Assembly (NCBI GenBank): GCA_963775695.1
Contig: CAVZJU010000003.1
Coordinates: 141,050-205,049 of the forward strand
Direction of reading: 5' to 3'
DNA: 64,000 nucleotides
Origin: an uncultured Actinomycetes bacterium
GTDB taxonomy: Bacteria > Actinomycetota > Thermoleophilia > Gaiellales > Gaiellaceae
Both the position numbers and the translations under genes were made by a program. Below, piece by piece: positions 5,511 to 22,498 of this stretch (positions within the stretch are counted from its first letter, which is position 1; each line of letters begins with the position of its first letter). The notes beneath the pieces were generated by a model. That model saw only the letters and a program-made list of their open reading frames with translations, was not told the DNA's origin and searched no databases.

Positions 5511-5588
5511 GGCGGCGGAGGAGTAAACGGGTTCCCGCGGCCGAGAACGGCCGAACGTCCTGGCCGGCACGTACGATCGCCGGGTCTC

Positions 5589-5635
5589 GGCGATGAGGCC
5601 CGCCGCCAACCGCCCGTGAGGCTGATGGCTTCTAC
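5589..5635 (+). promoter_or_regulatory. fluoride riboswitch (crcB motif), copy 1
   Basis: GGCGATGAGGCCCGCCGCCAACCGCCCGTGAGGCTGATGGCTTCTAC. Contains P1 (GGCG/CGCC), the AACCGCC block and GGCTGATGGCTTCTAC, with pseudoknot GAGGCC:GGCTTC. Closely resembles the Thermotoga petrophila crystallised aptamer as I recall it (GGCGAUGAGGCCCGCCCAAACUGCCCUGAAAAGGGCUGAUGGCCUCUAC). Confidence 0.85.
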
Positions 5636-5651
5636 GAACCAGGAGGTGCCT

Positions 5652-5888
5652 GTGATGCCGGGACGGGTTCGTGAGCCGAGGTACGACGTATCCCTCGAAC
5701 GCAAGATCGCCTGGGGAGCCGCGACGTTTGTCGCCGTCTCCGTCGTCGGGCTCCGGCTGGAGCCTGGTCTGCGCCTCGTGTGGATAGTGGCGCTGGTCTT
5801 CGGCGCGGGCGCGATCGGCACGATCGTGGGCGGCCGACTCGGCCGACCCACGATTCGGGGGCGGCGGTTGCGGCGCGGCTCGCGCTGA
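5652..5888 (+). CDS. small 2-TM membrane protein (unknown function)
   Basis: AGGAGG at 5641-5646, then GTG 5652 / ATG 5655. Product MPGRVREPRYDVSLERKIAWGAATFVAVSVVGLRLEPGLRLVWIVALVFGAGAIGTIVGG... First ORF after riboswitch 1. Confidence 0.5.
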   Translation: MMPGRVREPRYDVSLERKIAWGAATFVAVSVVGLRLEPGLRLVWIVALVFGAGAIGTIVGGRLGRPTIRGRRLRRGSR

Positions 5889-5898
5889 GCGCGTTTCG

Positions 5899-6363
5899 AT
5901 GAGTCTGCAGATCGAGATTCCTGGCAGGCCACCGCTCTCCCTGGACCATGTCGTCCTCGACGTCAACGGCACGCTCACCGATCGTGGGCGTCTCCTGGAC
6001 GGCGTCGGCGTTGCAGTCGAGCGGCTTCGGAGTCACGTCGGCGTCCTGCTCGTCTCCGCCGACACCTTCGGAACGCTGGAGCAGATCGGCGAGGATCTCG
6101 GCGTCGAGACGCGAACCGTTCGCGGTGGCGTGGACAAACGGCGGCTGGTGGAGGAGTTCGGCCCGGAACGCACGGCGGTGATCGGCAACGGGACGAACGA
6201 CGGTCCGGCGCTTGCGGCGGCGGCCGTCGGCTTGGCAGTGCTCGGACCCGAAGGGACGAGCGGAGATGCCGTGCGTGCCGCGGACGTTCTCTGCCGGTCG
6301 GTGGTGGAGGCAGTCGAGCTCCTTCTCGATCCGAACGCTCTGGCCGCCACCCTTCGGCCCTGA
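5899..6363 (+). CDS. HAD-superfamily protein, soluble P-type-ATPase-like (COG4087-like)
   Basis: LDVNGTLT (DKTGT-like phosphorylation motif) and GNGTNDGPAL (GDGxNDxPAL hinge-like). 154 aa, no TM segment. Confidence 0.8.
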   Translation: MSLQIEIPGRPPLSLDHVVLDVNGTLTDRGRLLDGVGVAVERLRSHVGVLLVSADTFGTLEQIGEDLGVETRTVRGGVDKRRLVEEFGPERTAVIGNGTNDGPALAAAAVGLAVLGPEGTSGDAVRAADVLCRSVVEAVELLLDPNALAATLRP

Positions 6364-6505
6364 GTTCGTGAGCTGGCCGGACAGCCCGAAGGAGTGCACC
6401 CGCTGCCGCTTCTCGCGCCCTTCGAGACGCCGTCGCGCGACGACGCCGGGTACGAGATCGTCGGCTGCTGCCGAAACCCCCGCATCGGCATGGACCTGTT
6501 CGCTT

Positions 6506-7768
6506 TCAGACGTCGCGATCCGGATCTGATGGAGCCCTGCCCGTCCTTTCGTCCCGGGACACCGGATTGACTGCCCCGCCGGAGAGCACCGAAACCGCCA
6601 TCCATCCGGCTGCGTAGAAGAAGGCCGCAGTCGGGGAGACCAGAGTCCACAGCAGACCGACCGCCGCCGACGAGCCGAAGTCGCCGAACGACTGCACCCC
6701 CCCGAGCACTCCGAAGCCGCTCCCTCGCAGTCGGTCCGGGAGGAGTCGCGCGACGAGCGCCGACTCGGCGGTCTCGGCGAGCCCGATCCCGCCGCCTGCG
6801 AGGAAGAACGGCACGACCAGAAACGGCCACGACTCGAGTGGCAGGGCGAACAGCGTGTACGCAACGACGTAGAGGAGGCCGCCCGTTGCGAACACGATCC
6901 TGGGCCCGACGCGGTCGAGCCAGTGGCCTCCTCCGTAGGCGGCGAACGTGGCGACCAGGTTGTGGCCGGCGTAGATCAGGACCGCGATCGAGGTCGCGGC
7001 GGTGAGGGAGCGCTCTCCGTGGTGGAGGAGCGTCGTCGCCCGGAGGATCAGGAGAGTCGTCGCCATGTTGCCGAGCTCGAAGGCGGAGATGGGCAGCAGC
7101 GGGCGCATCAGACCGGCTTCGCGGAGACCCGAGAAGTCGAAGCGGGCGCGGCGCGGGACAGCGTGGTGGGCGCGCCGCGCCTCGGCCGCTGCCACCGTGA
7201 TCGCCGCCGCCGCGAAGAACCCCGGAACGGCGGAGAGGTAGAGCGTCGGTCGGATCCCGATCCAGGCCACGAGCCCGGCGGCCAGGAGCGGACCGGCGAC
7301 GGCACCGAGATTGTCCCCGGCCCGCTCGAGGCCGAAGGCCCGCCCGTAGGTGGACGGCGAGGCGAGTGAGGCGAGCATCGCGTCGCGGGCCGGCGAGCGC
7401 ACACCTCGGGCCAGCCACGCGCCTGCGCGGAGGAGGCCGACCTGCCAGACCGTGCTCGCGAGTCCGAGGGCTCCGGTGGCTGCCGCGGTGACGACGTAGC
7501 CGCCTGTGGCCAGCCGCAGTCGGCGCGACTCGTCGTTCGCGAGCGGGCCGCTGATGAGCTTCGCGACCCCCGTGAGACCGTCGCTGATCCCTTCGATCAG
7601 CCCCAGGGCGCCCGCGGAGGAGCGGAGGACCACGGTCACGAAGCTCGGCAGCACCGAGGTCGCGATCTCGTGGCCGAAGTCGCTGAAGAAGCTCGCGACG
7701 CCGATCCCGGCGACGCCGCGGGTCAGCCACGAGCGGCGACCCTCGGCGGTCGTCTCGGTCGTCGTCAT
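6506..7768 (-). CDS. MFS transporter
   Basis: ATG at 7768 gives MTTTETTAEGRRSWLTRGVAGIGVASFFSDFGHEIATSVLPSFV... About 12 TM. Lies 25 nt downstream of the MutS-like pair on the same strand. Confidence 0.85.
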   Translation of the reverse strand: MTTTETTAEGRRSWLTRGVAGIGVASFFSDFGHEIATSVLPSFVTVVLRSSAGALGLIEGISDGLTGVAKLISGPLANDESRRLRLATGGYVVTAAATGALGLASTVWQVGLLRAGAWLARGVRSPARDAMLASLASPSTYGRAFGLERAGDNLGAVAGPLLAAGLVAWIGIRPTLYLSAVPGFFAAAAITVAAAEARRAHHAVPRRARFDFSGLREAGLMRPLLPISAFELGNMATTLLILRATTLLHHGERSLTAATSIAVLIYAGHNLVATFAAYGGGHWLDRVGPRIVFATGGLLYVVAYTLFALPLESWPFLVVPFFLAGGGIGLAETAESALVARLLPDRLRGSGFGVLGGVQSFGDFGSSAAVGLLWTLVSPTAAFFYAAGWMAVSVLSGGAVNPVSRDERTGRAPSDPDRDV

Positions 7769-7793
7769 CGCCCGAGCGAGCCGTTCCGCGCGA

Positions 7794-9320
7794 TCAGCGG
7801 GCCGTCCGTGCCTCTGCGGCGTTCGACTCGATTCCGAAGACCCTGCGGTAGGAGTCCTCGCCGTAGCTCGTCGGGAGCGGCTCGCCCTTGACGATACGGA
7901 ATGTCCTTCGGCCGCCGCTCCCGCGTTCGGCACGCAGGAACAGGGTGGTGTCGAGGCGCTGCGCGTGCAGGGTGTGCGCAAGGTCGTAGAGGTGGGTGAC
8001 GAAGAAGACCTTCACCCCGGAGTCGAGCATCGCGCGGATCACCTGGCGGGCGATCTCGGAGCCTTCCCGCTCGTTGGTCGCGGCGAACGACTCGTTGCAG
8101 AGCAAGAGGCAGCCCGGGGTGATCTCATCGGCGATCGCGCTCATCCTGGCGAGCTCCTCGTCGAGCTTCCCGCTCTCCATCGATTCGTCCTCCTCGCGCT
8201 TGTAATGGGTGAAGACGCCGCTGACGACGCCGGCCCGGAGGAATGCAGCGGGGGCGAACAGCCCGCACTGCATCATCAGCTGCGCGATGCCCGTGCTCCG
8301 CAGGAACGTCGACTTGCCGCCCTGGTTCGCGCCCGTGATCATCACGAGCGACCTGCCGTCCGCGTCGACGTCGTTTCCGACCACGCGTGGATCGAGGTGC
8401 AACGAGAGCGCCGCGTCGTACAGGTTCTCGGCGCTGAAAGCAGTGGCATTCCGGTCGACCGGTTCGGGGAAGCAGATCGGCTCGCCCTTCTCCGTCAGCC
8501 TCGCGTGCAGGTTCAGCGCCCCGAGGTAGAAGGCGATCTCGGCCCGCAGGACGGTGAAGAAGCTGACGATGTGGTCGGTCGACTGGCCCACGGCGTTGGC
8601 GACCAGGTTGGTGCCCTTGCCGCGCAGGTCGTCGAGCGCCTTGAAACCCGCCTCGTCCCGCGGCGGGATCGTGAAGCTGCGGCTCGGCGGCCCCTGCCCG
8701 GGGATGCGCTCGAGCCAGCCTCGCCGGCGGGGACGGCGCAGAACGTGCCCCACGCCCCTGTTGGCCCTTCCCAGACGCGCGCTCATGAGCTCTCCGCGGT
8801 CGAACTTCAGCTCCTTCAGGTAGCGGCGGAGAACGCCGAGGTACTCGTCGTCGAGCTCGGCCCGGAGCATGCCGAAGAACCGCTCGAACGCGTCGGAACG
8901 GAAGCTCGGCGCTTCCTCGTCGGCGAGCTTACGCAGGCGCTCGAGGACGTCGACGAGCGCCTGCAGCACCTGCACCGAGCTGTGCAGGATCATCCCCGGC
9001 GACGCGTGCCTGAGGCCGAAGAACAGGCTTGCCTTCCGCGGCGCGTTGACGGCCTCGACGGCCAGGTCGTAGATCGCCCTGACGGTCGCTTCGTGGGCCA
9101 GGCAGTCGGCCAGGACCTGTTGCCGGTACCGGATCTCTTCCCGCGTTCGCAGGTTCGCGAGCAGACCCTTGCCGGCGATCCCGCGCAGGAAATCGTCGCC
9201 CGCGGCCATCGCCTCGACCAGGGTCTCCAGCTCGAGGTCCTGGATCAGCGCGTCGGCGTTGGCCGGTGGCTCGCGCTCGACGTCGAAGTCGCGGTCGGCG
9301 TGCATGAGGAAGACCCTCAT
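7794..9320 (-). CDS. MutS-domain-V ATPase (MutS-related, no mismatch-binding domain), paralog B
   Basis: ATG 9320 overlaps the upstream stop (ATGA). Walker A GANQGGKST. Walker-B region LLLCNESFAATNEREG (NE instead of DE). Confidence 0.85.
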   Translation of the reverse strand: MRVFLMHADRDFDVEREPPANADALIQDLELETLVEAMAAGDDFLRGIAGKGLLANLRTREEIRYRQQVLADCLAHEATVRAIYDLAVEAVNAPRKASLFFGLRHASPGMILHSSVQVLQALVDVLERLRKLADEEAPSFRSDAFERFFGMLRAELDDEYLGVLRRYLKELKFDRGELMSARLGRANRGVGHVLRRPRRRGWLERIPGQGPPSRSFTIPPRDEAGFKALDDLRGKGTNLVANAVGQSTDHIVSFFTVLRAEIAFYLGALNLHARLTEKGEPICFPEPVDRNATAFSAENLYDAALSLHLDPRVVGNDVDADGRSLVMITGANQGGKSTFLRSTGIAQLMMQCGLFAPAAFLRAGVVSGVFTHYKREEDESMESGKLDEELARMSAIADEITPGCLLLCNESFAATNEREGSEIARQVIRAMLDSGVKVFFVTHLYDLAHTLHAQRLDTTLFLRAERGSGGRRTFRIVKGEPLPTSYGEDSYRRVFGIESNAAEARTAR

Positions 9321-10870
9321 GACGCGACCCGCTCCCGCAGCCGTTCGTACGTGAGACCGTACTTCTCGGCGATCGCCCAGGCGTAGGCGCGTCCGTCGGC
9401 CGGCCGGCGGACGAGCTTGAAGGTCCGAAGGGCGGGATTCCCCGGAACGACGGTGCTGACCATGCTGACCGTCGCATCGCTGAGCGACGCGAGCTCGTCC
9501 ACGAAGGTGACGTAGACACCGAGCAGGTCCAGGTCGAGCAATGCCCTCAGCACCTCGGTCCCGATGAAGAGCGCGTCGCTCAGCGTCGTCGACCCGAAGC
9601 TCTCGTTCATGACGACCACGCTCTCCGGGGTCGCCTGCTCGAGGATCTCGTGGACGCGGACGAGCTCGTCGTCGAGCTTGCCGCGGAGCGTCTCGATGTC
9701 CTCCTCGCGCTCGAAGTGGGTGAAGATGCGGTCGGGCAGGAAGAGCCGTGCCGCACTCCCGGGGACGGGGAGGCCGAGACTGGCCAGATGGTGGAGCTGT
9801 CCGAACATGCGGGCGAAGGTCGTCTTGCCCCCGTTGTTCGGCCCGGTGACGACGATGCACCGTTCCGTCCCCCGAAGCTCGAGGTCGTTGCAGACCACCG
9901 TTCCCCGCTCGGAGACGAGCTTGAGCGCCAGGGCGAGGTCGAAGGTCTCCGACGCGGTGGTGTCCTTCGAGCGTGCCGAGACGTGCGGGAAGCAGAATCG
10001 CAGGCCGACCCGCTCGAGCGGCTCGATCAGCTCGAGATACGCGACGTAGAACTGAATCTCGCGGTCGAAGCGGACGATCGCCGGCTCCAGGAAGTCCGCG
10101 TGGCGGCTGCAGAAGGCGTCGAGGGCGCCGAACGGGTCCGGGTTCAGCTGCGCGACCAGGGCCAGGATCTGCCCTTCGACGTGGCTCATGTGCGGCCACT
10201 CGCGCAGCTCGAGGAGGTAGCTCTTCGCGGCCCCCTGCTTGAACCGGGCAAATGTCTGCTCGACCTCCGCGCTGTAGTCCGGTTCGCCCGCATACCCGGT
10301 GACGGTGACGCGGGGCCCGTTGATCTGGACGGCGTAGACGACCTCGCCGAGAGCCTCCTCGACCGTACGCCCCTCGGTCTCGAGCGAGGCAAAGGCGTCC
10401 GAGGCCACGTAGCTCTCGAGACAGGCGGCGAGGGACCGGAGGCCGCGGGATGTGACGTCGAGCGAGGAGAGCTCGTCGGCGAGGGTGCGGACGCTTGCGC
10501 AGTAGGTGCCGGCGGCGTCCAGGAACCAGCGCTCCCTCTCGAAGTGGTACCGCCGGTCGCCCGCCTGCGCCAGGTACGTCCGTGTCGTCCGCATCCGATC
10601 GGCGAACCGGCGCACCGAGGCCATCACCTGGTCGTTGCGCAGGTCGCGGACGACCTCGTGCCGGTAGCGGACCGTCTCCACGTCCCGTTGCGCTGCCTGG
10701 AAGAACGGCTCGAGCTCGTACTCCTCGCGCCCGGCGGTCAGCCCCGCCAGCACCTGGTCGAGGTTCAGGTCGGCGAAGGAGTCCGGCTCGGCGGTCGCCT
10801 CGCCAGCTGGCCGCCCCGGAAAGAGGACTGTTCGGAACTTCCCAGCTTCCCGCCCGTTGCGATCCGCCAT
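9317..10870 (-). CDS. MutS-domain-V ATPase (MutS-related), paralog A
   Basis: 517 aa. Walker A GPNNGGKTT. Walker-B region VVVMNESFGSTT. Start codon is 25 nt downstream of riboswitch copy 2. Confidence 0.85.
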   Translation of the reverse strand: MADRNGREAGKFRTVLFPGRPAGEATAEPDSFADLNLDQVLAGLTAGREEYELEPFFQAAQRDVETVRYRHEVVRDLRNDQVMASVRRFADRMRTTRTYLAQAGDRRYHFERERWFLDAAGTYCASVRTLADELSSLDVTSRGLRSLAACLESYVASDAFASLETEGRTVEEALGEVVYAVQINGPRVTVTGYAGEPDYSAEVEQTFARFKQGAAKSYLLELREWPHMSHVEGQILALVAQLNPDPFGALDAFCSRHADFLEPAIVRFDREIQFYVAYLELIEPLERVGLRFCFPHVSARSKDTTASETFDLALALKLVSERGTVVCNDLELRGTERCIVVTGPNNGGKTTFARMFGQLHHLASLGLPVPGSAARLFLPDRIFTHFEREEDIETLRGKLDDELVRVHEILEQATPESVVVMNESFGSTTLSDALFIGTEVLRALLDLDLLGVYVTFVDELASLSDATVSMVSTVVPGNPALRTFKLVRRPADGRAYAWAIAEKYGLTYERLRERVAS

Positions 10871-10894
10871 CCGCTTCCACCACCAGTAGGTTCG

Positions 10895-10941
10895 GTAGAA
10901 GCCATCAGCCGCTCTGGCGGTTTCAGGCGGGCTTCATCGCC
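10895..10941 (-). promoter_or_regulatory. fluoride riboswitch (crcB motif), copy 2
   Basis: Minus-strand sense: GGCGATGAAGCCCGCCTGAAACCGCCAGAGCGGCTGATGGCTTCTAC. Pseudoknot GAAGCC:GGCTTC is fully Watson-Crick. Confidence 0.85.
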
Positions 10942-11015
10942 GCTGACATCCTACCGCTGGCGGCCGTTCCCACGCCGGTCGCGGCCGGTTCTGCGTGCGG
11001 CTGGATTTCGTTGCA

Positions 11016-11064
11016 GCGCGATGAGGCTCCGCGCCCAACCGCCGCTCCGGCTGATGGCCTCTAC
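11016..11064 (+). promoter_or_regulatory. fluoride riboswitch (crcB motif), copy 3
   Basis: GCGCGATGAGGCTCCGCGCCCAACCGCCGCTCCGGCTGATGGCCTCTAC. Pseudoknot GAGGC:GCCTC. Divergent from copy 2. Confidence 0.8.
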
Positions 11065-11090
11065 CGACTGGCCCTCGAGGGGGAGTGGTG

Positions 11091-11210
11091 ATGGAGGTCA
11101 AGGTTCGGGCAATCGTCGTCTGCGGGAACCGGCTGCTGGTCACCCGCGAACGCCGCCGGGCAGCCGAGCACTCCTCGCTGCCGGGAGGTCGCGTCAAGCG
11201 CTGGGAGTAG
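11091..11210 (+). pseudogene. 39-codon NUDIX-hydrolase N-terminal stub
   Basis: Hand-found ATG 11091 to TAG 11210: MEVKVRAIVVCGNRLLVTRERRRAAEHSSLPGGRVKRWE. This reads like a NUDIX N-terminus up to LPGG, but the NUDIX box (GxxxxxExxxxxxxREUxEExGU) is absent. Confidence 0.35.
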
Positions 11211-11488
11211 CGGATGTCACCTGTGCGGTCGTAGTCCGCGAGGAGCGCTCGGACGCGCGCCGGCGTCTCCGACGGACCGGTGCAGGAGAACGCCAGCCTG
11301 GCGTCGCGACTGCTCTTTCCTGCTCGCCAGAACGACGACATCCAGCGCTCTTCGTCTTCGAAGATCGTCCGGCGGAGCGGACAGCCACTGCGAGCGAAGG
11401 GCTCGACGAGGTCGAGGGCCAGGAAATCGGCCACCGGAGAGGCCTCCCTCCCGGCTCCGGCCCGAGCCAGGTCGTCTCGTGCCTCCGC

Positions 11489-12001
11489 TCAGCCGCCGAG
11501 ACGCGCTGCGTACCGAGCCTGTGCCTGCTCGATCTCTCGCTCCGCTGCCTCGCGACCGGCCCAGCCCTCGATCGCCGTCAACCGCTCGGGCTCGAGCTCC
11601 TTGTAGACGGAGAAGAAATGTGCGATTTCGTCGCGGACGCGCGCGGAGACGTCGTCGAGCTCGTAGACGTCCCGCCACTCGGCATCGTGCAGCGGGACGC
11701 AGAGCACCTTGTCGTCGACGCCGGATTCGTCCCGCATCTGGAAGATGCCGATCGGCCTGACGTCGATTCTGCAGCCGGGGAACGTCGGCTCGCTGACCAG
11801 CACGAGCGCGTCGAGCTGCGCATCCATCTCGCGCTGACGCTGGCCGTGGTCGACCAGCGTGTCCTCCAGGAAGCCGTAGTCGGCCGGGAACACGACCGAC
11901 GAGAACAGGTGCCGATCGAGCCTGAAGACGCCCCTGCCCACATCCCACTCGTACTTGTTCTGGCTCCCCTTCGGCACTTCGACGAAGCAGACGAGCTCCA
12001 C
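11489..12001 (-). CDS. ppa: inorganic pyrophosphatase, family I (atypical metal-site region)
   Basis: VEVPKGSQNKYEWD, FPADYGFLEDTL, IRPIGIFQMRDESGVDDKVLCVP, IAHFFSVYKELE. An insertion and substitutions occur at the DxDxxD segment (see findings). Confidence 0.9.
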   Translation of the reverse strand: MELVCFVEVPKGSQNKYEWDVGRGVFRLDRHLFSSVVFPADYGFLEDTLVDHGQRQREMDAQLDALVLVSEPTFPGCRIDVRPIGIFQMRDESGVDDKVLCVPLHDAEWRDVYELDDVSARVRDEIAHFFSVYKELEPERLTAIEGWAGREAAEREIEQAQARYAARLGG

Positions 12002-12032
12002 GGCTACTCCTTGATCTCCTCGATACTCCGGA

Positions 12033-12470
12033 TCAATCCGCCGGCTCCTCCGATACGACCAGAACGGGTACCTCCGCCGAGGCGATCAGGCGCTCGGCCA
12101 CGCCGTGGAGGAGGAAGCGTCCGGGGCGGCGGCTGCGGTGATGGCCGACGATCACCAGGTCGAACCCGTGCTCACGCGCATAGTCGAGCAGGTCCTCCAC
12201 CGGATGGTCGCCTTCGATGATCTCCTGGCGGACGTCGACCCCGGCACGGTCGGCGCGGTCGAGGAAGTGGTCGAAGGTCTCCCTCAGGTACCTGGTCGCC
12301 GCATCGACCGATTCGGCGCGGTCGGCCTCGGTCTCCGCGTGGGCGGGGGAATGCGCGACGGACGCGGCGACGATGTCCGCCTGGTAGCGGCGGGCCAGAT
12401 CCAGCGCGAGGTCGAATGCACGCGCCGCGGGGCGTGAGCCGTCCCAGGCGATGAGGATTTCCTGGAACAT
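12033..12470 (-). CDS. universal stress protein (UspA family)
   Basis: ATG 12470 overlaps the upstream stop by 1 nt (TGATG). MFQEILIAWDGSRPAARAFDLALDLARRY...DLVIVGHHRSRRPGRFLLHGVAERLIASAEVPVLVV. Confidence 0.85.
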   Translation of the reverse strand: MFQEILIAWDGSRPAARAFDLALDLARRYQADIVAASVAHSPAHAETEADRAESVDAATRYLRETFDHFLDRADRAGVDVRQEIIEGDHPVEDLLDYAREHGFDLVIVGHHRSRRPGRFLLHGVAERLIASAEVPVLVVSEEPAD

Positions 12471-14440
12471 CAGTGACGGAGGGCTGGGATCATGGCGAGT
12501 GCTCCTAGCAGGACGAGAAGGACATACAGCAGGTAGAAGCCGAGCCGGCCCGACTGCAACCGGCGGGTGAAGCCGGAGAGCCGAAGGCCGGCGGCGACGA
12601 GCGGCTCGTACAGGTAGTGCTCGAAGGCCGGCACCACGCGCGTGGTGAGCATGAAGCGCTCCGGCTGCCTCCCGCCCCCCTCGGCGTGGATCGTCCTGCG
12701 AAATCCGTAGACACCGGCCAGGACGACGCGGATCGGATTGGTGTAGGCCTCTGGCGTGTATTGGACGACCGCGATGTCGGGTGCGGCGCCGGAGAGCCAC
12801 ACCGGCGCACGACGCACCGACGGCTTCAGGAGCACGCGGACGAGAAGGGCGGCCGCGATCAGGAACGTCGGGATCGCCAGCGCCAGCCACGTCGGCGAGA
12901 GGACCGAGAAGTTTCCGTAGACGGGGCCGAGGACCAGCGGGTGGGTGACGGCCGTGCCGGCCGGGTCGAAGCCGAGGACGCCGCTCAGCCCTTCGCCGAG
13001 CCAGCGGATCTCCCACGGCGCGGCCGCCCCGAGGAACAGCAGGGTGACGCCGAACGCGACGAAGCCGATGCCTCCCCGGCGGGCCTCGGGGGCCGGCTCC
13101 TGCGGGTGACGTGGACGCCCGAGGAAAATTCCACCGAAGAGGCGGGCGAAGGCGAGCAGCGCGATGCCGGCGGTGAGCGCGACCATCGCGCCACCGAGCG
13201 CCATGAACAGCTGCGCGTCCGAGTCCTTCAGACGAAACCCTTGCAGGAGCGCCTCCAGGGTGAACCACTCGCTGACGAATCCGCCGAATGGAGGCATCGC
13301 CGCAAGTGTGAGGACCGCGAGTCCGAAGCCCAGAGCCGTCCCCGGAAGCTTTGCCGCGAGGCCTCCGAGCGGCGCGGTCGTCCGCTCCCCGGTGGCCTCG
13401 GCGACGCTTTCCGCGCCCAGGAACGCCCCCGCCTTCGCGATTCCGTGCATGATCACGTGCAGGGTCGCGGCGAGGAGTCCCGCCGCCGCCAGCTCCGGCT
13501 CGTTGCTGCCCTGCCCGATGAGGGCGACTCCGAAGCCGAGGAGCGCGATGCCCCCGTGCTCGACGCTCGAGAAGCCGAGGAACCGCTTCACGTCGTCCTG
13601 CACCACCGCGTAGAGGATCCCGGCGATGGCACCCAGACCGCCCAGCACGATCAGCAGCTCTCCCCACCAGAGCGGCGCAGGTGCGAGCGTGCCGTAGACG
13701 AGGCGCCAGAGCCCGTAGAAGCCGCCGTTGAAGGCGACGGCGATCGTCGCCGCCGTCGCAGCGGGAGCAGCCTGGTACAGACCCGGGAGCGGCACCTGGA
13801 AGGGAAGCAACCCGATCTTGGTGCCGAAGCCGACGAGCAGGAGGACGAACGCGACGTCGCGGGTCGTGCCGAGGCCGGCCGCGGCGTGCTGCCAGGCGCT
13901 GAACTCGAAGCTTCCGGTCTGCCCGTAGAGCAGCCCGAAGGCGGCGAGGATCGCAGCACCGCCGATCTTGTTCACCGCCGAGGCGAAGTAGCCGGCCGCG
14001 AGCGCAGCCGGACGGTCGCGATCCAGGCTGCCGAGGATGTAGAGGCAGACGCTGAGGGTCTCCCAGGCGAGGAGGAAGACGAACCCCTGATTGGCGCCGA
14101 GGACGGCGGCGAGCGCAAGGATGACGAGGCTGTGGAGGGTCGCGGGCGACCGGCGAGTCGGACGCTCGGCGAGAGCGACGGACACTGCAGCGGCCGTCCC
14201 GCCGACCAGCGCGAGGAAGATGCCGCTGAGCCGGTCGGCGACGAGCGCGGAGGGGCCGAATCCGAGCCACGTCCCGAGACCCACGCGAGCTTCCGACCAC
14301 CCCCCCGCGCTGACGACTCCGACTGCGCAGAGGAGCGCGGATGCGACGGCCGCCGCACCCAGGGCCGGGCGAGGCCGGAGCAGGGCGAGTCCGGCTGCCC
14401 CGCAGAGCACGAGGAGGGCTGCTGCGAAGACGCCGTTCAC
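12470..14440 (-). CDS. HyfB/HycC-like (NuoL-like) antiporter-type membrane subunit
   Basis: 656-aa polytopic protein with proton-antiporter-like blocks (GFGTKIGLLPFQVPLPGLY, FLGFSSVEHGG). Confidence 0.85.
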   Translation of the reverse strand: MNGVFAAALLVLCGAAGLALLRPRPALGAAAVASALLCAVGVVSAGGWSEARVGLGTWLGFGPSALVADRLSGIFLALVGGTAAAVSVALAERPTRRSPATLHSLVILALAAVLGANQGFVFLLAWETLSVCLYILGSLDRDRPAALAAGYFASAVNKIGGAAILAAFGLLYGQTGSFEFSAWQHAAAGLGTTRDVAFVLLLVGFGTKIGLLPFQVPLPGLYQAAPAATAATIAVAFNGGFYGLWRLVYGTLAPAPLWWGELLIVLGGLGAIAGILYAVVQDDVKRFLGFSSVEHGGIALLGFGVALIGQGSNEPELAAAGLLAATLHVIMHGIAKAGAFLGAESVAEATGERTTAPLGGLAAKLPGTALGFGLAVLTLAAMPPFGGFVSEWFTLEALLQGFRLKDSDAQLFMALGGAMVALTAGIALLAFARLFGGIFLGRPRHPQEPAPEARRGGIGFVAFGVTLLFLGAAAPWEIRWLGEGLSGVLGFDPAGTAVTHPLVLGPVYGNFSVLSPTWLALAIPTFLIAAALLVRVLLKPSVRRAPVWLSGAAPDIAVVQYTPEAYTNPIRVVLAGVYGFRRTIHAEGGGRQPERFMLTTRVVPAFEHYLYEPLVAAGLRLSGFTRRLQSGRLGFYLLYVLLVLLGALAMIPALRH

Positions 14441-15207
14441 GCTGCTGCCTCCCGGGTGACGACGCCGGACGCCAGAAGCAGTCCGTGCAGGACCGCGATC
14501 GGGCTCGGCGGAGATCCCGGGACGTAGACGTCGACCGGGAGGACCCTGTCGACGCCGCCGGCCACTTCACCTGTCTGGGCTGCGAGACCGCCGGAGCAGG
14601 CGTCGGTACCGGCGGCGACGACCGCCTTGGGGTGCGGCATGACCTCGAATGCGCGAAGGAGGGGTGCCTCCATCGAGGGGGTGACTCCACCGGTGACGAG
14701 GAGGATGTCGGCGTGCCTCGGAGACAGCGTGAAGAAGAGGCCGAGGCGCTGCATGTCGTAGAAGGGGTTCGTCAGCGCGGCGATCTCCCACTCCTCGGCT
14801 CCGTCCGAGCCGGCGTCGACGTGCCTGACGTGGATCGAGCGGCGGAGCGTGCGCGACTGCTGTCCGAGGCTGCGACGCGGCTCGCCGGTCGCGCCTTCGG
14901 GATCGTTCACGACGAGCGCGCCGCGCCGGCGTGCTGCCGTCTCGTACTCGGGCTCGAATTCGAAGCGGCTCGGATCGGCGGCGACGCAGGCGCCGCAGAG
15001 GATGCAGCGGCCGCGGTCGACGGAGACGCGGCCGCCGCTGCTCCTGATCGCTCCGGTCGGGCAGACCGCTTCCAGACCTGCCGGCGCCGGCGTGTCGCTC
15101 CTGAGACCGACCCGGCCGCGAAAGCCGGGAGGGGCCGCCTCAGGACGCCGCGGGTATCGGGTCGTGACGATGCCGCGATGCAGGCCGCGGGGGATCCACT
15201 CCAGCAT
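14437..15207 (-). CDS. fusion of a HycF-like ferredoxin remnant and a HycG/NuoB-like small subunit; most FeS cysteines missing
   Basis: N-terminal part retains VCPTG...CILCGACVAADP. C-terminal part is NuoB-like (LSPRHADILLVTGGVT...PKAVVAAGTDACSGG...LPVDVYVPGSPPSP). It has GSDGAEEWE and PGSPP where the canonical motifs are GSCxxCE and PGCPP. Confidence 0.75.
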   Translation of the reverse strand: MLEWIPRGLHRGIVTTRYPRRPEAAPPGFRGRVGLRSDTPAPAGLEAVCPTGAIRSSGGRVSVDRGRCILCGACVAADPSRFEFEPEYETAARRRGALVVNDPEGATGEPRRSLGQQSRTLRRSIHVRHVDAGSDGAEEWEIAALTNPFYDMQRLGLFFTLSPRHADILLVTGGVTPSMEAPLLRAFEVMPHPKAVVAAGTDACSGGLAAQTGEVAGGVDRVLPVDVYVPGSPPSPIAVLHGLLLASGVVTREAAA

Positions 15208-16700
15208 CAGCGATCCGCTCCTGCCGGCGAGAGCCCGAAGCTGTGCTCGATGAACGAGAAGTCGGTGAGCACGTCGCCGCGGAAGCTGGCTGCGAAGAGC
15301 GGCCAGTTACGAAGCGACGGCGAGGAGATCCGCACCGTTCGCAGCCGACCCTCGTCCACCTCGACCCAGTAGACGAGCTCGCCCATCGGCGCCTCGGCCC
15401 AGCCGAACGCCGCTCCACTCTCGGCGGGAAGCTCGACCGTCAGCTCGCCGTCGTCCTTCTCGTCGCGCTCGAGCGACTGCCGGATCAGGTGGACACTCAC
15501 GCGGATCTCGTCGAGGCGGACCTCGAGACGGGCCATCGCGTCACACTCCTCGGCCGTGACCATCCGGAAGCCCAACCTCCGGTACGCGCCGTAGGGGCGC
15601 TCGAAGCGCGCATCGGTCGGGATCCCCGATCCGCGCGCGACGGGCCCGACGCCCGCATGGGCGTCGACCGTGGCGGGTTCGAGTGTGCCGCTTCCGATCA
15701 GACGGTCGGTGAACGAGGGTGTCCTCAGCAGGAGCCGTCGATCCCGGCGCACGTCGCGCTCGAGCTCGCTGAGAAACCGTCGTATCTCGCGGATCGGAAG
15801 CTGGGGCCCTCCGGCGACACCGCCGGTGACGATGACGCCTCGTCCGAAGCGACTGCCGCAGAGCCGCGCCCGCAGACGCATGACCTGCTCCTTGAGGATC
15901 CCGAATCGGGCGACCGCCACGGACAGGGCGGCGTCCTCTGCGAGCCGGGTGGCAACGTCGAGATGGTTCGCGATCCGCTCGAGCTCCGCGTGTACGACCC
16001 GCCAAAGCTGCGCCTTCGGCGGCGGTTCGACGCCGAGCGCACGCTCGACCGCGTGCGAGAAGGCGCACGCATGCGCGACCGACGCAATGCCGGCTACGCG
16101 CTCGGCGACCGTCGTCCCGTCCCCGGGGGTGCGACCGTTGAAGCGGCTCTCGAGCCCCCGCCGCTTGAAATACGGCCGGACCTCCAGTGCCAGGACGTCT
16201 TCGCCGCCCGTCTCGATCACGTACTGGATCGACTCGAAGACTCCGGAACGGATCGGCCCGTAGGGGATGACGAACGTCCCCTCGCCCTCCACCCGGCGGC
16301 GAAGGTTGTCCGGATCGGGGCGGACGGCCGGGGCCAGGTCCGGATGCCCGAGAGGAATGAGACCGTGGAGGTCGTGCAACTCCCGCTCCGGGAAGCGAAA
16401 TGCCGGTGACATCAGTGCAAGTGACGGAAACGACGACGTCCGGTCGATCGACGCCAGGAGGGCGACCAGCTGTCCGCGCACCGCGAAGGCGACGGCGAGG
16501 GACCGCTCCGGCTCGTCCGTGACGAACATCGCGACGAGCCGGGCGCGACGTTCGAGCAGGAGCGCCGCCGCCCGGTCGATCACTCCGATCGGCAGTCGTA
16601 GGCGCTGCTCGCCGAGCGGAGCCGGTTCGCCGACTGCGCGAAAGCGACCGTCGAGGAACTCGTGTGCGTCGCCTGCGAGCATTGCGTTCTCGGCGGTCAT
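15207..16700 (-). CDS. HycE/HyfG-like (NuoC-NuoD fusion type) 'large subunit' lacking both NiFe CxxC motifs
   Basis: ATG 16700 overlaps the upstream stop (ATGA). AERVAGIASVAHACAF replaces R-x-C-G-x-C-x-x-x-H. The C-terminus ...SFIEHSFGLSPAGADR replaces D-P-C-x-x-C-x-x-R. Only 3 isolated Cys in 497 aa. Confidence 0.85.
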   Translation of the reverse strand: MTAENAMLAGDAHEFLDGRFRAVGEPAPLGEQRLRLPIGVIDRAAALLLERRARLVAMFVTDEPERSLAVAFAVRGQLVALLASIDRTSSFPSLALMSPAFRFPERELHDLHGLIPLGHPDLAPAVRPDPDNLRRRVEGEGTFVIPYGPIRSGVFESIQYVIETGGEDVLALEVRPYFKRRGLESRFNGRTPGDGTTVAERVAGIASVAHACAFSHAVERALGVEPPPKAQLWRVVHAELERIANHLDVATRLAEDAALSVAVARFGILKEQVMRLRARLCGSRFGRGVIVTGGVAGGPQLPIREIRRFLSELERDVRRDRRLLLRTPSFTDRLIGSGTLEPATVDAHAGVGPVARGSGIPTDARFERPYGAYRRLGFRMVTAEECDAMARLEVRLDEIRVSVHLIRQSLERDEKDDGELTVELPAESGAAFGWAEAPMGELVYWVEVDEGRLRTVRISSPSLRNWPLFAASFRGDVLTDFSFIEHSFGLSPAGADR

Positions 16701-18160
16701 CGGGCGGCGAGCTGGTCGGCGGCGTGTCCGAGGAGCGTCGAGAGTCCGCTCGGAACGTGCAGGCCGAGGCCGACGACGACGACGAGGCAGGCTGCCATCC
16801 CGGCGACCATCGTCCAACTCGCCTCGCCGCGAGGGGCCCCGGGCGCTGCAGGCGAGAACACCATCCTGCCGGCGTGCCAGACGACCCCGAGGAACGCCAC
16901 GTTGACGAAGACGAGCAGCATCGTCACCCAGACGTACCCGGGGGTCGCGAAACCCCCGCTGACGATCTGGAACTCGCTTCGGAAGATGCCCGAGACGGGC
17001 AGACCGCTGAGCGCGAGGACTGCCACGAGAAACATCGGGCCGGAGACCGGCAGGGCTTGGGCCGCACCCTGCACGGAGTCGATCTCCTTGCTCCCGAAGC
17101 GTCTCAGGATCGAACCCGTGCCGAAGAAGGCCATCCCCTTCGCGGCGGCGTGGTTGAGCACGTGCAGGAGTGCGCCGGCGACCGCGATGCGCACGCCGAA
17201 GCCGATGCCGACCGCGATCACGCCCATGTGCTCGATCGTCGAGTAGGCGAGGAGCCGCTTGTAGTTCTCCTGCCGGAGAACGAAGAGCGCCGCCACGAGC
17301 AGCGATGCGGTTCCGAACACGAGCAGGACGTGGCGCGGAAAGTCCTGTCCGACTGCGAGGGCGGTCACCTGGTAGAAGCGGAGGATGGCGTAGAGGGCAT
17401 TCGCGAGCAGCGCCCCGGAGAGGAGCGCCGACACGGGGCTCGGTGCCTCGCTGTGCGCGTCCGGGAGCCAGGCGTGGAGCGGGGCGAAGCCCGCCTTGGT
17501 GCCGAATCCGACCACCGCCAGGAGGAACGCGATCTCGACCTCGGTCGCCGGCAGCTGCCCGCCGACCGAGAGATATCGCGTGAACCGCGGGATGTACGCC
17601 TGGCCGAGTGCGTTCGTTCCCGAGGCGTACAGGATGATCACCGCGAGGAGGGCGATGCCGAGCCCCACGGACGCGATCAGGACGTACTTCCACGCCGCCT
17701 CGAGCGCCGCGTCCGTCCGTTCCAGCGCGACCAGGAGAACCGAGACGATCGTGGTCAGCTCGACCGCCACCCACAGCGTGGCGAAGTCGTTCATCAGTGG
17801 GACGAGCAGCATCGTCCAGCCGAAGAGGTTGAGGTAGCCGAAGTACTTGCGGGCGAACGAGTCACGGCCGTGGTGATGCGCTCCCGCCCGCAGGAATCCG
17901 ATCGAGAAGACGCTCCCCGCCGCATACAGGAAGCTGCTTGCGAGAAGGAACACCGCTCCAAGGGAATCGAGGCGGAGCCACCCGCTGGCGGTCGTCAGAG
18001 GCACGTCATTGCGAACAGAGACAGCGGCGCTGAGCGCGAGTGCAAAGCAGGCACCCCCCGCTGCGGCGGTCGCGAGCTCGGCCGCACGCGGTGAGCCGAG
18101 AAAGGCAACCGCTGAGCCGGCCAGCGGTACGAGGACCAGGGCGATGAGGACGGCGCTCAT
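16697..18160 (-). CDS. HyfF/HyfD-like (NuoM/N-like) antiporter-type membrane subunit
   Basis: 487 aa. GFGTKAGFAPLHAWLPDAHSEAPSPVSALLSG and LAYSTIEHMG are typical of NuoM/N/MrpD-type subunits. Confidence 0.85.
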   Translation of the reverse strand: MSAVLIALVLVPLAGSAVAFLGSPRAAELATAAAGGACFALALSAAVSVRNDVPLTTASGWLRLDSLGAVFLLASSFLYAAGSVFSIGFLRAGAHHHGRDSFARKYFGYLNLFGWTMLLVPLMNDFATLWVAVELTTIVSVLLVALERTDAALEAAWKYVLIASVGLGIALLAVIILYASGTNALGQAYIPRFTRYLSVGGQLPATEVEIAFLLAVVGFGTKAGFAPLHAWLPDAHSEAPSPVSALLSGALLANALYAILRFYQVTALAVGQDFPRHVLLVFGTASLLVAALFVLRQENYKRLLAYSTIEHMGVIAVGIGFGVRIAVAGALLHVLNHAAAKGMAFFGTGSILRRFGSKEIDSVQGAAQALPVSGPMFLVAVLALSGLPVSGIFRSEFQIVSGGFATPGYVWVTMLLVFVNVAFLGVVWHAGRMVFSPAAPGAPRGEASWTMVAGMAACLVVVVGLGLHVPSGLSTLLGHAADQLAAR

Positions 18161-18161
18161 C

Positions 18162-19790
18162 TCAGCCGCGAAGCCGGTTCAGCACGTCAGTCGTGACCGA
18201 GGTGCGCTGGACGCTGAAGTACTGGACGAGGAGGACGAAGACCAGGAGCCCGATGAAGACGTCGAAGAGCAGGAGCAGGGCGAGGATCAGGGGAAGGCTG
18301 GGGGCGATGACCAGGGCCGCGAGGGTGACCCCGTTCTCGAGCACGAGGAAGCCGATCACCTGCGACGGCGCGTAGGGCCGGAGGATCATCAGGAGCAGTG
18401 CGACCAGCACGATCGCAACCGCAATGCCGAGCGCCTCCAGCGGGAGCGCTCCCTGGTGATCGAGATGGAGCCGTGAGAGGGCGATGAAGCTGAAGCTGGA
18501 GAGGACGATGCCGAGCAGCGCTGCGCTCGGCACCCGCACCGTCGACGGGACGCGCATGGACACGTCCAGCCTCGTAATGGTCGCCCCGATCGCGAGCGGG
18601 ATGGCGATCGTCTTGAAGGCGATCGTGATCGCCCCGATCACCCACAGATCGGCGTGGTGGAGCTTCGCCGCCGCTGCGAACGCGACGATTGCGACAGCGG
18701 CGGAACCGAGGCCGTACAGCCGCAGCTGCCCCCGGATGTCCTGCGTGCGTAGGAGTGCGAACTCGAGCAACAGGACGGTGACTGCGACGACGCTCGCGAT
18801 GCCGCCGAACACGGTGAGGTGGACGGTCCCGTACTGTCGCTGGAGCACGAACGTGATCACGGCCAGGACGGCGAAGAGAAAGCCGGCCACGGTGAACTCG
18901 GGGATCTTGTAAAGGCGCAGCTTCGCGAACGACGACTCGATGACGACGATCGCGGCTCCGACGACGAGCGCCTTCCCGAACAGAATCGCGATCGCCAGGA
19001 GGACGCTGTCGAGCCGCCGGTCCCCCGCCAGGCCCCACGGCGCGGTGAGGACGTTGGCGAGGATGACGAAGAGGATCATCTGCTTCATCGACGAGCCCCA
19101 CTTGAGCAGGGCGTAGCCGGGGCCGGAGTGCTCGAGCGTCCGGCCTTCCTCGATCATCCCGAACTCCAGGGTGGCCCCGTGGTTCTCCAGTGGGATCCGC
19201 CCGGTCTCGGAGATGACGACCATGAAGAACGCTGCCGCGGCGAGAAGATGAGCGGGCCGGAAGACCTCGACCGCGGACGACTTGAGCGTCGCGGCGAAGG
19301 CGTAGGGGAGGTCGGTGCCCGTGATGAGCGCGACCGAGAAGATGACGAAGATGATCGTCGGCTCGCCGAGCGCGCCGAACGTGCGGAGCCGGCTCGAGCC
19401 GAGCTGGGTATACGGGCTGCCGCTGTCGATAGCGGCCAGCGAGACGGCATAGCTTGCGAGCCCGAGCACGAAGCCGCCGCCGAGGATGTCCCCCATGTAG
19501 GCCGGTTGGGGCGGGAAGTCCGTCAGCACCGGGATCAGGAGCGGGACAACGCAGTAGCAGGCGAAGGCGACGTAGGGAGCGATCCGGAACACCGGCCCTG
19601 CCCCGTCCGGAAGGACCGTCTCCTTCCGGAAGAACTTGGCGATGTCGTGGTAGGGCTGGAGCAGCCTGGGCCCGTGCCGTCCCTGCACCAGGGCCTCGGC
19701 CCGGGCGATGACACCGGTGACCAGCGGCGAGACGAGCAGGATCGTCCCCAGCTGGAAAGCCTGGATCAGTCCGTCGCTCAGCTGCGGCAT
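18162..19790 (-). CDS. HycD/HyfC-like (NuoH-like) subunit fused to a HyfE-like (NuoK-like) membrane module
   Basis: 542 aa. N-terminal ~300 aa: LVSPLVTGVIARAEALVQGRHGPRLLQPYHDIAKFFRKE...EFGMIEEGRTLEHSGPGYALLKW (HycD-like). C-terminal ~220 aa are multi-TM and HyfE-like. First gene after riboswitch copy 4. Confidence 0.8.
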   Translation of the reverse strand: MPQLSDGLIQAFQLGTILLVSPLVTGVIARAEALVQGRHGPRLLQPYHDIAKFFRKETVLPDGAGPVFRIAPYVAFACYCVVPLLIPVLTDFPPQPAYMGDILGGGFVLGLASYAVSLAAIDSGSPYTQLGSSRLRTFGALGEPTIIFVIFSVALITGTDLPYAFAATLKSSAVEVFRPAHLLAAAAFFMVVISETGRIPLENHGATLEFGMIEEGRTLEHSGPGYALLKWGSSMKQMILFVILANVLTAPWGLAGDRRLDSVLLAIAILFGKALVVGAAIVVIESSFAKLRLYKIPEFTVAGFLFAVLAVITFVLQRQYGTVHLTVFGGIASVVAVTVLLLEFALLRTQDIRGQLRLYGLGSAAVAIVAFAAAAKLHHADLWVIGAITIAFKTIAIPLAIGATITRLDVSMRVPSTVRVPSAALLGIVLSSFSFIALSRLHLDHQGALPLEALGIAVAIVLVALLLMILRPYAPSQVIGFLVLENGVTLAALVIAPSLPLILALLLLFDVFIGLLVFVLLVQYFSVQRTSVTTDVLNRLRG

Positions 19791-19823
19791 CCGTCCCGAC
19801 GTCTCCTTGCCCTCGACTACGAG

Positions 19824-19891
19824 CTAGAAGCCATCAGCCGTCGGAACGGCGGTTCGGAGCGGGGGCCGCTCCCGCCAGAGCTTCATCTGGC
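19824..19891 (-). promoter_or_regulatory. fluoride riboswitch (crcB motif), copy 4, with an extra inserted hairpin
   Basis: Minus-strand sense: GCCAGATGAAGCTCTGGC-GGGAGCGGCCCCCGCTCC-GAACCGCCGTTCCGACGGCTGATGGCTTCTAG. Same core blocks. An 18-nt GC hairpin is inserted between P1 and the AACCGCC block. Confidence 0.8.
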
Positions 19892-20034
19892 GTCGCCAGC
19901 GTAGCGAATCGCCGACGCGGTCCGGACGGTACCGGACACGCAGGACGCAGACCTGGAACCCGAACTCCAGGCGCGCCGCCACCGGCCGAGACGGTTGGAC
20001 CGGCCCTGTTCGGCTAGGCTGATTCCACACCGGT

Positions 20035-20080
20035 CGCGATGAGGCCCGCGCTCAACCGCCTTCGGGCTGATGGCTTCTGT
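20035..20080 (+). promoter_or_regulatory. fluoride riboswitch (crcB motif), copy 5
   Basis: CGCGATGAGGCCCGCGCTCAACCGCCTTCGGGCTGATGGCTTCTGT. Divergent from copy 4. Followed by GGGAGG and ATG 20115. Confidence 0.8.
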
Positions 20081-20114
20081 GTCTTCTTCGGGTTCGCTCC
20101 AGGGAGGCGGACGT

Positions 20115-20540
20115 ATGAGTCATCTCGCGCCGGATTCAGCCGGAAGTGCCCAGGTCGAGATCGACGTCGACCCGGCTGGGCTCGACGAGCTTCGCGGCCG
20201 GGCAGGCGACGCAGCACCGACCGCGGACGAGGACCTGCTCCGATACCTCGTGTACCTGGGCGCCGGCTACCTGGAGACCGAGGCAGTCTCTGCGGCTGCC
20301 CCGAGCGTCCACGAGGCCTATGCGCGCCTCGACCGCATGCATGCTGCCGTGGAGGGGCACTCGTCGGTCCTGAGTTTCCACTACGGCGAGTCGGCGCGAG
20401 AGTTCGCCGAAGAGGAGAGGGCACACGCGGCTCACGAGCGAAGCGCCGGAGCCTACGAGGGGCTTGTCGAGAAGCTCGAGGCGGAGATCGCAGCCCGGGA
20501 AAAGCGAGTCGTCAGGCTGAAACGAGCGCTCGAGCAATGA
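20115..20540 (+). CDS. hypothetical protein (acidic, C-terminal coiled-coil-like), first gene after riboswitch 5
   Basis: ATG 20115 is preceded by GGGAGGCGG. Product MSHLAPDSAGSAQVEIDVDPAGLDELRG...LVEKLEAEIAAREKRVVRLKRALEQ. High GC3. No family recognised. Confidence 0.6.
   Translation: MSHLAPDSAGSAQVEIDVDPAGLDELRGRAGDAAPTADEDLLRYLVYLGAGYLETEAVSAAAPSVHEAYARLDRMHAAVEGHSSVLSFHYGESAREFAEEERAHAAHERSAGAYEGLVEKLEAEIAAREKRVVRLKRALEQ

Positions 20541-21067: not shown

Positions 21068-22498
<1,431 letters not shown>

Follow-up and report, generated by a model that had tools for sequence, protein, structure and literature searches.

Family I inorganic pyrophosphatases (PPases) are a textbook target of fluoride, and this locus raises the question of whether one of them, encoded in a fluoride-riboswitch neighborhood and departing from its relatives at the metal-binding aspartates, could be an isozyme that tolerates the ion. 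The original prediction had suggested exactly this for the ppa gene at 11489-12001 of the window, by which we mean the whole 64-kb stretch of uncultured Actinomycetes DNA that was analyzed. We examined in turn the protein, its operon and leader, its relatives and their genomic company, and the readings that these allow.

The pyrophosphatase and its aspartate segment

The gene and the two stretches of it that matter here are as follows:

11489-12001, minus strand: variant family I inorganic pyrophosphatase (ppa) CDS, 170 aa, intact ORF
11810-11851, minus strand: remodeled metal/nucleophile segment, codons D51-D64 (DHGQRQREMDAQLD), from HMMER and MAFFT alignments and direct reading
11819-11839, minus strand: seven-residue insertion R55-A61 (RQREMDA), opposite a seven-residue gap in solved PPases

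The ORF starts at GTG, preceded by AGGAG at a distance of 6 nt, and the assignment to family I was borne out by a match to PF00719 over the full length of the protein (157 bits, E=4e-46, Pfam cut-off 23.5, profile positions 2-152 of 153) and by alignments to solved PPases in the PDB (HMMER, E=1e-43), with an identity of 46-47% to the M. tuberculosis enzyme. An AlphaFold model computed from an alignment of 50 relatives (mean pLDDT 80, pTM 0.78) recovered PPases as all of its top Foldseek matches (TM 0.70-0.77; 0.74 for the M. tuberculosis PPase), and by this comparison the protein is predicted to adopt the PPase fold of a five-stranded barrel and two helices. Against the NCBIfam equivalog NF002317 ('inorganic diphosphatase') it scores 132.6 bits, under the 200-bit cut-off; an ordinary member of the clade described below (P0012, whose segment reads TENGRHLD; 143.5 bits) and one canonical-type tandem partner (152 bits) also miss this cut-off, and the shortfall is therefore not specific to the motif change. 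No second family I PPase was found within the 64-kb window.

The E. coli aspartate segment against which the change had been called (HTLSLDGDPVDVLV) had been quoted correctly, as the reference copy is identical to PDB 4um4_A, and the alteration itself is real by both HMMER and MAFFT: alignment to characterized PPases restores no D-x-D-x-x-D. HMMER pairs the query segment (EDTLVDHGQRQREMDAQLDALVLV in the alignment to the mycobacterial PPase), as 'edtlvDHGQrqremdaQLDALVLV', with 'edtlgDDGD-------PLDALVLL' of the solved M. tuberculosis and M. leprae PPases, and MAFFT concurs. E. coli Asp65 is replaced by His52, Asp67 by Gln54 and Pro68 by Gln62, Asp70 is kept as Asp64, and RQREMDA is inserted ahead of the conserved Leu-Asp70. 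E. coli Asp67 we take to be yeast Asp117 by the standard numbering correspondence. Anchored on the left, the segment thus places His52 and Gln54 at E. coli D65 and D67; anchored on the right, it places M59 and A61 there. The predicted insertion is present, at seven residues instead of the eight to nine first estimated, but the proposed replacement of D-G-D-P-V-D by D-A-Q-L-D was out of register: only its last Asp is homologous (D64 to E. coli D70), and D60 sits at position -4, which is the Gly position in canonical enzymes. We also considered whether D60 or E58 might restore the motif and rejected this, since E58-x-D60-x-x-x-D64 is set against D-x-D-x-x-D and no gap-free register fits. The PROSITE-type Asp-rich signature D-[SGDN]-D-[PE]-[LIVMF]-D-[LIVMGAC], which we take to describe E. 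coli Asp65, Asp67 and Asp70, is absent from the window protein in a pattern check; it is present in the E. coli and M. tuberculosis enzymes, in the four tandem partners and in 68 of 79 canonical loci, and 10 of the 11 canonical loci that fail it keep the three Asp, which are thereby kept in 78 of the 79.

The rest of the enzyme is canonical, as had been stated. Eleven of 13 catalytic residues are intact in the MAFFT alignment: E8, K16, E18, R30, Y42 and D64 correspond to E. coli E20, K29, E31, R43, Y55 and D70, and D91, D96, K98, Y133 and K134 to E. coli D97, D102, K104, Y141 and K142, while Y51 is Phe in the window protein. Compared with canonical family I PPases (E. coli Ppa; M. tuberculosis Rv3628, PDB 4z70/1wcf), the protein thus has the same fold, length class, PPi-binding residues and D70/D97/D102 metal ligands; unlike them, it is without Asp65 and Asp67, carries a loop longer by seven residues and belongs, in contrast to a housekeeping ppa, to a riboswitch-controlled island.

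As the window is a metagenome contig and residues 54-59, at the insertion, are poorly modeled by AlphaFold (pLDDT <50), a pseudogene or an artefact of assembly or frameshifting has to be considered. Against this, the ORF is uninterrupted and has a ribosome-binding site, an identical protein is encoded on four contigs from three samples, and the insertion recurs, in frame, in relatives 78-91% identical from other samples. The last two observations mean that the variant is not an assembly artefact; this explanation is vanishingly improbable and, in our judgment, already effectively refuted.

The operon, its leader and the surrounding fluoride island

The ppa gene lies in the following setting:

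5580-5641, plus strand: fluoride riboswitch above the Rfam threshold, leading a 77-aa ORF and a HAD-like hydrolase gene (5654-6363, plus strand)
10889-10950, minus strand: fluoride riboswitch downstream of ppa (Rfam, 50.2 bits), leading MutS-domain-V genes at 9317-10870 and 7794-9320 and an MFS transporter gene
11008-11070, plus strand: fluoride riboswitch (Rfam, 38 bits) that faces the 3′ end of ppa
11092-11211, plus strand: 39-codon Nudix-like stub (weak NUDIX match, 14.2 bits) resembling the N-terminus of a Nudix hydrolase
12033-12470, minus strand: universal stress protein (USP) gene (PF00582, E=3e-28), 31 nt upstream of ppa
12470-19790, minus strand: complex-I/hydrogenlyase-like membrane module of five overlapping or abutting genes (Pfam), itemized in the next five lines
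12470-14440, minus strand: Proton_antipo_M (antiporter-like; Pfam)
14437-15207, minus strand: Oxidored_q6 (20-kDa-like; Pfam)
15207-16700, minus strand: 49-kDa/NiFe-like (Pfam)
16697-18160, minus strand: Proton_antipo_M (antiporter-like; Pfam)
18162-19790, minus strand: NADHdh (Pfam)
19824-19890, minus strand: fluoride aptamer variant in the operon leader (Rfam match 19818-19885), with 34 nt between its end and the first start codon
20026-20086, plus strand: divergent fluoride riboswitch (Rfam, 36.4 bits), leading two ORFs (141 and 176 aa) and enolase
21098-22498, plus strand: enolase (gene calls)

The operon thus reads NADHdh, antiporter-like, 49-kDa-like, 20-kDa-like, antiporter-like, USP and, as its last gene, ppa; the start of USP and the stop of the gene before it overlap, and a promoter and terminator scan of the gap between USP and ppa returned nothing informative. 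The same module order adjoins the variant ppa in loci L101-L106 and L109-L112. The 49-kDa/NiFe-like protein has three cysteines in total and no CxxC motif, and cannot bind a NiFe centre; judged from its sequence, the module, elsewhere in fluoride regulons called 'formate hydrogenlyase', is here a hydrogenase-less complex-I/Mrp-like membrane complex.

Five fluoride aptamers fall within one 15-kb part of the window (region 5580-22498), four of them above the Rfam threshold and one, the leader of the ppa operon, below it. Neither the 141-aa nor the 176-aa ORF ahead of enolase has a Pfam match, and the scanned genes of 5580-22498 included no CrcB/Fluc or CLC-F exporter. Six-frame translation recovered no continuation of the Nudix-like stub in any frame, and the plus-strand stretch 11008-11211 is probably what is left of a decayed riboswitch-controlled Nudix gene; a transcript from the 11008 riboswitch could run antisense into ppa.

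The view that ppa closes a fluoride-induced operon holds for its position and for the aptamer leader, with the proviso that this leader, at 21.4 bits (E=0.077) against the Rfam RF01734 gathering threshold of 34 bits, is recognizable only as an insertion-bearing variant. It has the layout CCAGAUGAAGCUCUGG-[hairpin]-GAACCGCC...GGCUGAUGGCUUCUA, in which an extra hairpin stands between P1 (CCAG/CUGG) and the GAACCGCC linker and accounts for the Rfam score below threshold; the conserved RF01734 core is otherwise in place, with P1 around the GAUGRnGCY loop, the AACCGCC linker, P3, the GCUGAUGGCUUCUA tail and the loop-tail pseudoknot. A covariance model of our own scores it at 28.8 bits (E=8e-6). We recovered 14 distinct examples of this extra-hairpin aptamer (the window, L002, L005, L085, L087, L088, L089, L091, L095, L096, L098, L099, L103 and L106), each ahead of a hydrogenlyase-like operon that begins with NADHdh. 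Every one of them can pair fully (100%) in P1, P3 and the pseudoknot, and 98.4% of cells are paired in the 14 homologues as against 25-57% with the partners slid; the inserted hairpin has compensatory changes in three of its four pairs, and none of 500 shuffles reached the observed covariation. On the strength of the core elements and of the hairpin covariation across the 14 examples, we accept that a fluoride aptamer leads the window operon; a response of this leader to fluoride is predicted. Because the window copy falls under the Rfam threshold, operons with the extra-hairpin aptamer can be annotated as riboswitch-less; judged by this one scored copy, fluoride-riboswitch regulons would be under-annotated, Rfam's threshold missing a conserved insertion-bearing subclass of the aptamer.

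A clade without Asp67 and its riboswitch linkage

We collected the best 120 homologues of the window protein (62-100% identical to it), which gave 119 clusters without the Asp-rich signature; the PROSITE-type pattern fails in 119 of the 119. With positions numbered backward from Asp70, the residues that stand in the altered segment are, of 119:

Position -5 (E. coli Asp65): Asn 34, Asp 24, Glu 21, Gly 15
Position -3 (E. coli Asp67): Arg 68, Gly 15, His 9, Gln 7
Position -2 (E. coli Pro68): His 90, Arg 15, Gln 11

The clade consensus is T-E-x-G-R-H-L-D-A-L-V-L-V, and the anomaly is, at the level of sequence, wider than originally described, comprising a clade-wide change that is mostly Asp67 to Arg and Pro68 to His. 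The seven-residue insertion is limited to seven clusters (P0001-P0005, P0007 and P0008), while two clusters have a shorter, intermediate insertion and three a longer one, all ending in hydrophobic-D-x-x-L-D; by this distribution it represents an uncommon sub-variant and a small addition to the change shared by the clade. Within the sub-clade, P0003-P0005, P0007 and P0008 have Asp at -3 where the window protein has Ala, and the clade's conserved His, present in the 91%-identical relative P0002, is Gln56 in the window protein.

In a neighbor-joining tree of the 119 clade sequences, 78 canonical sequences, four tandem partners, the PPase of L071 and two references, the clade is monophyletic with no canonical sequence inside it, and its sister group consists of PPases of Thermoleophilia and Solirubrobacterales. 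A column-by-column contrast identified the Asp65/Asp67 segment as the sole active-site difference between clade and canonical enzymes; E8, K16, E18, R30, Y42, D64, D91, K98 and Y133 are invariant in the clade alignment and D96 is nearly so, and this conservation of the remaining active site points to selection for substrate and metal binding and not to decay. Laboratory variants of yeast PPase Asp117 and its neighbors, obtained by site-directed mutagenesis, were reportedly described by Pohjanjoki and colleagues in 2001 (cited in PMC11210485); the same position is perturbed in both cases, there in laboratory mutants and here by Arg/His, or Arg-Gln and an insertion, fixed in a whole lineage.

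Several other departures from the canonical segment were found. An Actinomycetota MAG (JBKPFQ010000151.1; L071, 10001-10453) encodes a PPase outside the clade with an independent loss of Asp65 and Asp67 (…TRSPKGTPLDAM…), with no fluoride aptamer within 10 kb, and Asp67 is replaced by Glu, His, Asn or Ala in the representatives P0162, P0177, P0210, P0221, P0246, P0249 and P0261. The top-scoring entries of the representative library (P0121, P0122 and P0124; 545-646 aa) have three PPase-domain matches per chain and could be real fusions or gene-calling artefacts; the third repeat of P0121 reads EDGKPVD, with Asp67 changed to Lys. Among representatives at 50% identity the clade is reduced to two, P0123 and the fragment P0232. 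A pattern search of metagenomes for HLDALVLVxEPT returned 16 loci, three of them canonical 'EDGDHLD' enzymes.

We next turned to the genomic company of the clade. Our covariance model was built from 18 Rfam-confirmed aptamers and used to search 1.45 Mb of loci, the negative control being 1.25 Mb from 79 canonical PPase loci, most of them of Actinomycetota; these 79 and L005 are the matches listed in a profile scan of genome contigs with the clade alignment. Ten further loci were added through exact-protein look-up, which brought to 22 the non-redundant clade loci whose upstream sequence was available. All 22 lie in fluoride riboswitch clusters, 17 of them with an aptamer upstream on the ppa strand, and across the 1.45 Mb, model matches of at least 25 bits occurred only in the window or clade loci. 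None of the 79 canonical PPase loci has a fluoride aptamer above 20 bits by the same model. Restriction of the clade to fluoride-riboswitch neighborhoods is the pattern that a fluoride-specialized isozyme would predict. The 22 loci are arranged as follows:

Aptamer directly upstream, same strand (9 loci): L005, L088, L092, L103, L104, L105, L106, L111, L112
Riboswitch, then canonical-type ppa, then variant ppa (4 loci): L085, L095, L098, L099
Variant ppa at the distal end of an operon led by a riboswitch (4 loci): window, L102, L109, L110
Variant ppa divergent from an operon with a riboswitch leader, own aptamer not detected (5 loci): L087, L089, L091, L096, L101

The directly upstream aptamers are at or above the Rfam threshold in L005, L088, L092, L103, L105 and L106 and are called by our own model in L104, L111 and L112. 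The long loci all share one neighborhood, composed of the hydrogenlyase-like module, USP, the MutS-domain-V gene pair and often enolase. In the second arrangement a tandem PPase pair stands behind a single fluoride riboswitch:

L085, 1250-2240: tandem PPase pair
L095, 6527-7497: tandem PPase pair
L098, 8086-9059: tandem PPase pair
L099, 9406-10358: tandem PPase pair

The paired genes are 6-33 nt apart, the first with a canonical DGDPLD motif and the second a member of the Asp67-less clade; the pairs may represent a hetero-oligomer or a division of labor. The canonical-type partner has an unusual C-terminus, YKxLEGKPTRTFGF.

That PPase genes and fluoride riboswitches go together is established in print (PMC11139923, summarizing Baker et al., 2012). 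In E. cloacae FRM, a fluoride riboswitch controls the operon ppaC-uspA-eno, whose PPase is of family II (Mn-dependent) and whose other products are USP and enolase (PMC5533749). The window resembles such published fluoride-riboswitch PPase genes in bringing together PPase, USP and enolase, and its hydrogenlyase-like, MutS-like and HAD-like company matches as well; it differs from E. cloacae FRM in that the characterized enzyme there is of family II, whereas the one here is of family I with a rebuilt nucleophile site. Like the ppa of the CrcB-CrcB-ppa-eno cluster of Clavibacter michiganensis pCM2 and the tandem partners, the window ppa is an actinobacterial fluoride-linked extra copy of family I, but those enzymes keep D-G-D-P-L-D and fall outside the variant clade. 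The pCM2 locus (L108) reads CrcB-CrcB-ppa-eno-ilvD and has a fluoride aptamer about 5 kb off on the other strand, ahead of glnA; a further plasmid-borne extra family I ppa with a canonical motif is found on S. cattleya pSCAT (L107, 633325-633723). We found no report of the remodeled active site: the literature searchable without subscription yielded no account of any family I lineage whose Asp65/Asp67 loop is rebuilt, and nothing usable on the kinetics of Asp67/Asp117 mutants with fluoride.

A possible fluoride-tolerant enzyme and the alternatives

Fluoride bound to PPase stands where the nucleophilic water would otherwise be (PMC6770254); this water, as stated in PMC11210485 with reference to Heikinheimo 2001 and Pohjanjoki 2001, is activated by two metal ions and yeast Asp117. 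The loop that has been rebuilt here normally supplies Asp65, a ligand of M1, and Asp67, which serves as hydrogen-bond partner and general base to the water that bridges M1 and M2, and it is this bridging water that fluoride replaces when it inhibits canonical enzymes. Across the clade, Asp67 has been exchanged and the constraint on the M1 ligand beside it relaxed, with the remainder of the site preserved. The reading that we favor, and hold to be close to an even call, is of a fluoride-response family I PPase paralogue in which the rebuilt loop weakens fluoride binding while PPi removal continues. Placed at the end of an operon whose leader contains an aptamer, ppa would be expressed when cytoplasmic fluoride rises; the enzyme keeps all residues binding PPi and metals M2-M4, and the altered loop, with Arg and His for Asp67 and Pro68 in most clade members and Arg-Gln followed by an acidic insertion in the window, may hold the nucleophile differently and so bind fluoride less well, such that PPi would still be removed while the ordinary enzyme is blocked. 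Low levels of a fluoride-insensitive PPase are enough for fluoride tolerance in yeast (PMC11857102). From these features we may reasonably regard the window protein as a good candidate for a naturally fluoride-tolerant enzyme.

Several observations weigh against tolerance. With the M1 ligand and the general base both lost, catalysis could be crippled or abolished. The canonical-type ppa co-transcribed with the variant in four loci would be redundant if the variant were self-sufficient, which argues against a simple 'resistant replacement' and hints at a partner role or, at the least, at a variant that leaves the canonical copy needed, and the existence of fluoride-linked family I PPases with canonical motifs implies that over-expression alone can be a strategy. 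The five clade loci without an aptamer on the ppa strand, the absence of the clade's His from the window protein and the low model confidence of its insertion (pLDDT <50) count against it too. The loss of two of the three Asp of D-x-D-x-x-D, together with the tandem arrangement of L085, L095, L098 and L099, would suit a weak or dead partner or protective subunit with the PPase fold, which either joins canonical PPase in mixed hexamers or buffers Mg-PPi-fluoride; as bacterial family I PPases are homohexamers (PMC11210485), mixed oligomers are conceivable. We think such a role unlikely, as most loci, the window included, have the variant without an adjacent canonical copy, the residues that bind PPi and those left for metal binding show little or no variation, beyond what a scaffold needs, and the replacement residues Arg and His are themselves conserved.

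The same conservation of the new residues across the clade bears on the proposal that this is an ordinary PPase over-produced under fluoride stress, its loop changed by lineage drift with no effect on fluoride sensitivity. Fluoride-linked family I copies have been read in print as compensation by over-expression, and riboswitch-linked ppa and eno together are interpreted in this way (PMC11139923, PMC5533749), and PPases with canonical motifs, the tandem partners among them, do occur in fluoride clusters. Drift would, however, have had to strike the otherwise strictly conserved Asp65 and Asp67 in a clade found only beside fluoride riboswitches, and we consider it quite unlikely. A changed reaction, by which the protein would hydrolyze another phosphoanhydride or phosphoester or act on fluoride-containing phosphate species, is suggested by the conversion of nucleophile-activating residues to Arg/His and by the constant linkage with other members of the fluoride regulon whose role is unclear (the MutS-like pairs, the HAD-like hydrolase and the Nudix stub); with the PPi-binding Lys, Arg and Tyr set unaltered and no further clade-specific substitutions lining the pocket, it appears very unlikely.

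Returning to tolerance, its extension to the clade can be put forward more tentatively, at somewhat below even: the fluoride regulons of uncultured soil Actinomycetota may include a dedicated, active and intrinsically fluoride-insensitive family I lineage in which Asp65-x-Asp67-Pro has become x-Gly-Arg-His (Arg-Gln and an acidic insertion in the window) and in which the nucleophile would be activated unlike in any characterized family I PPase. The fluoride-insensitive PPases known from the searchable literature are those of family II, which are reported to be so, and the membrane PPases (PMC11857102), beside an old Methanothrix report cited in PMC11139923. If the proposal is true, a natural family I lineage altering the residues that hold the fluoride-displaced water would change the accepted picture in which cells simply make more of a sensitive enzyme, and would provide a natural experiment on nucleophile activation; it could also furnish a compact 170-aa part to engineer fluoride tolerance, for which PMC11139923 and PMC11857102 state a need, into strains that degrade or make organofluorine compounds.
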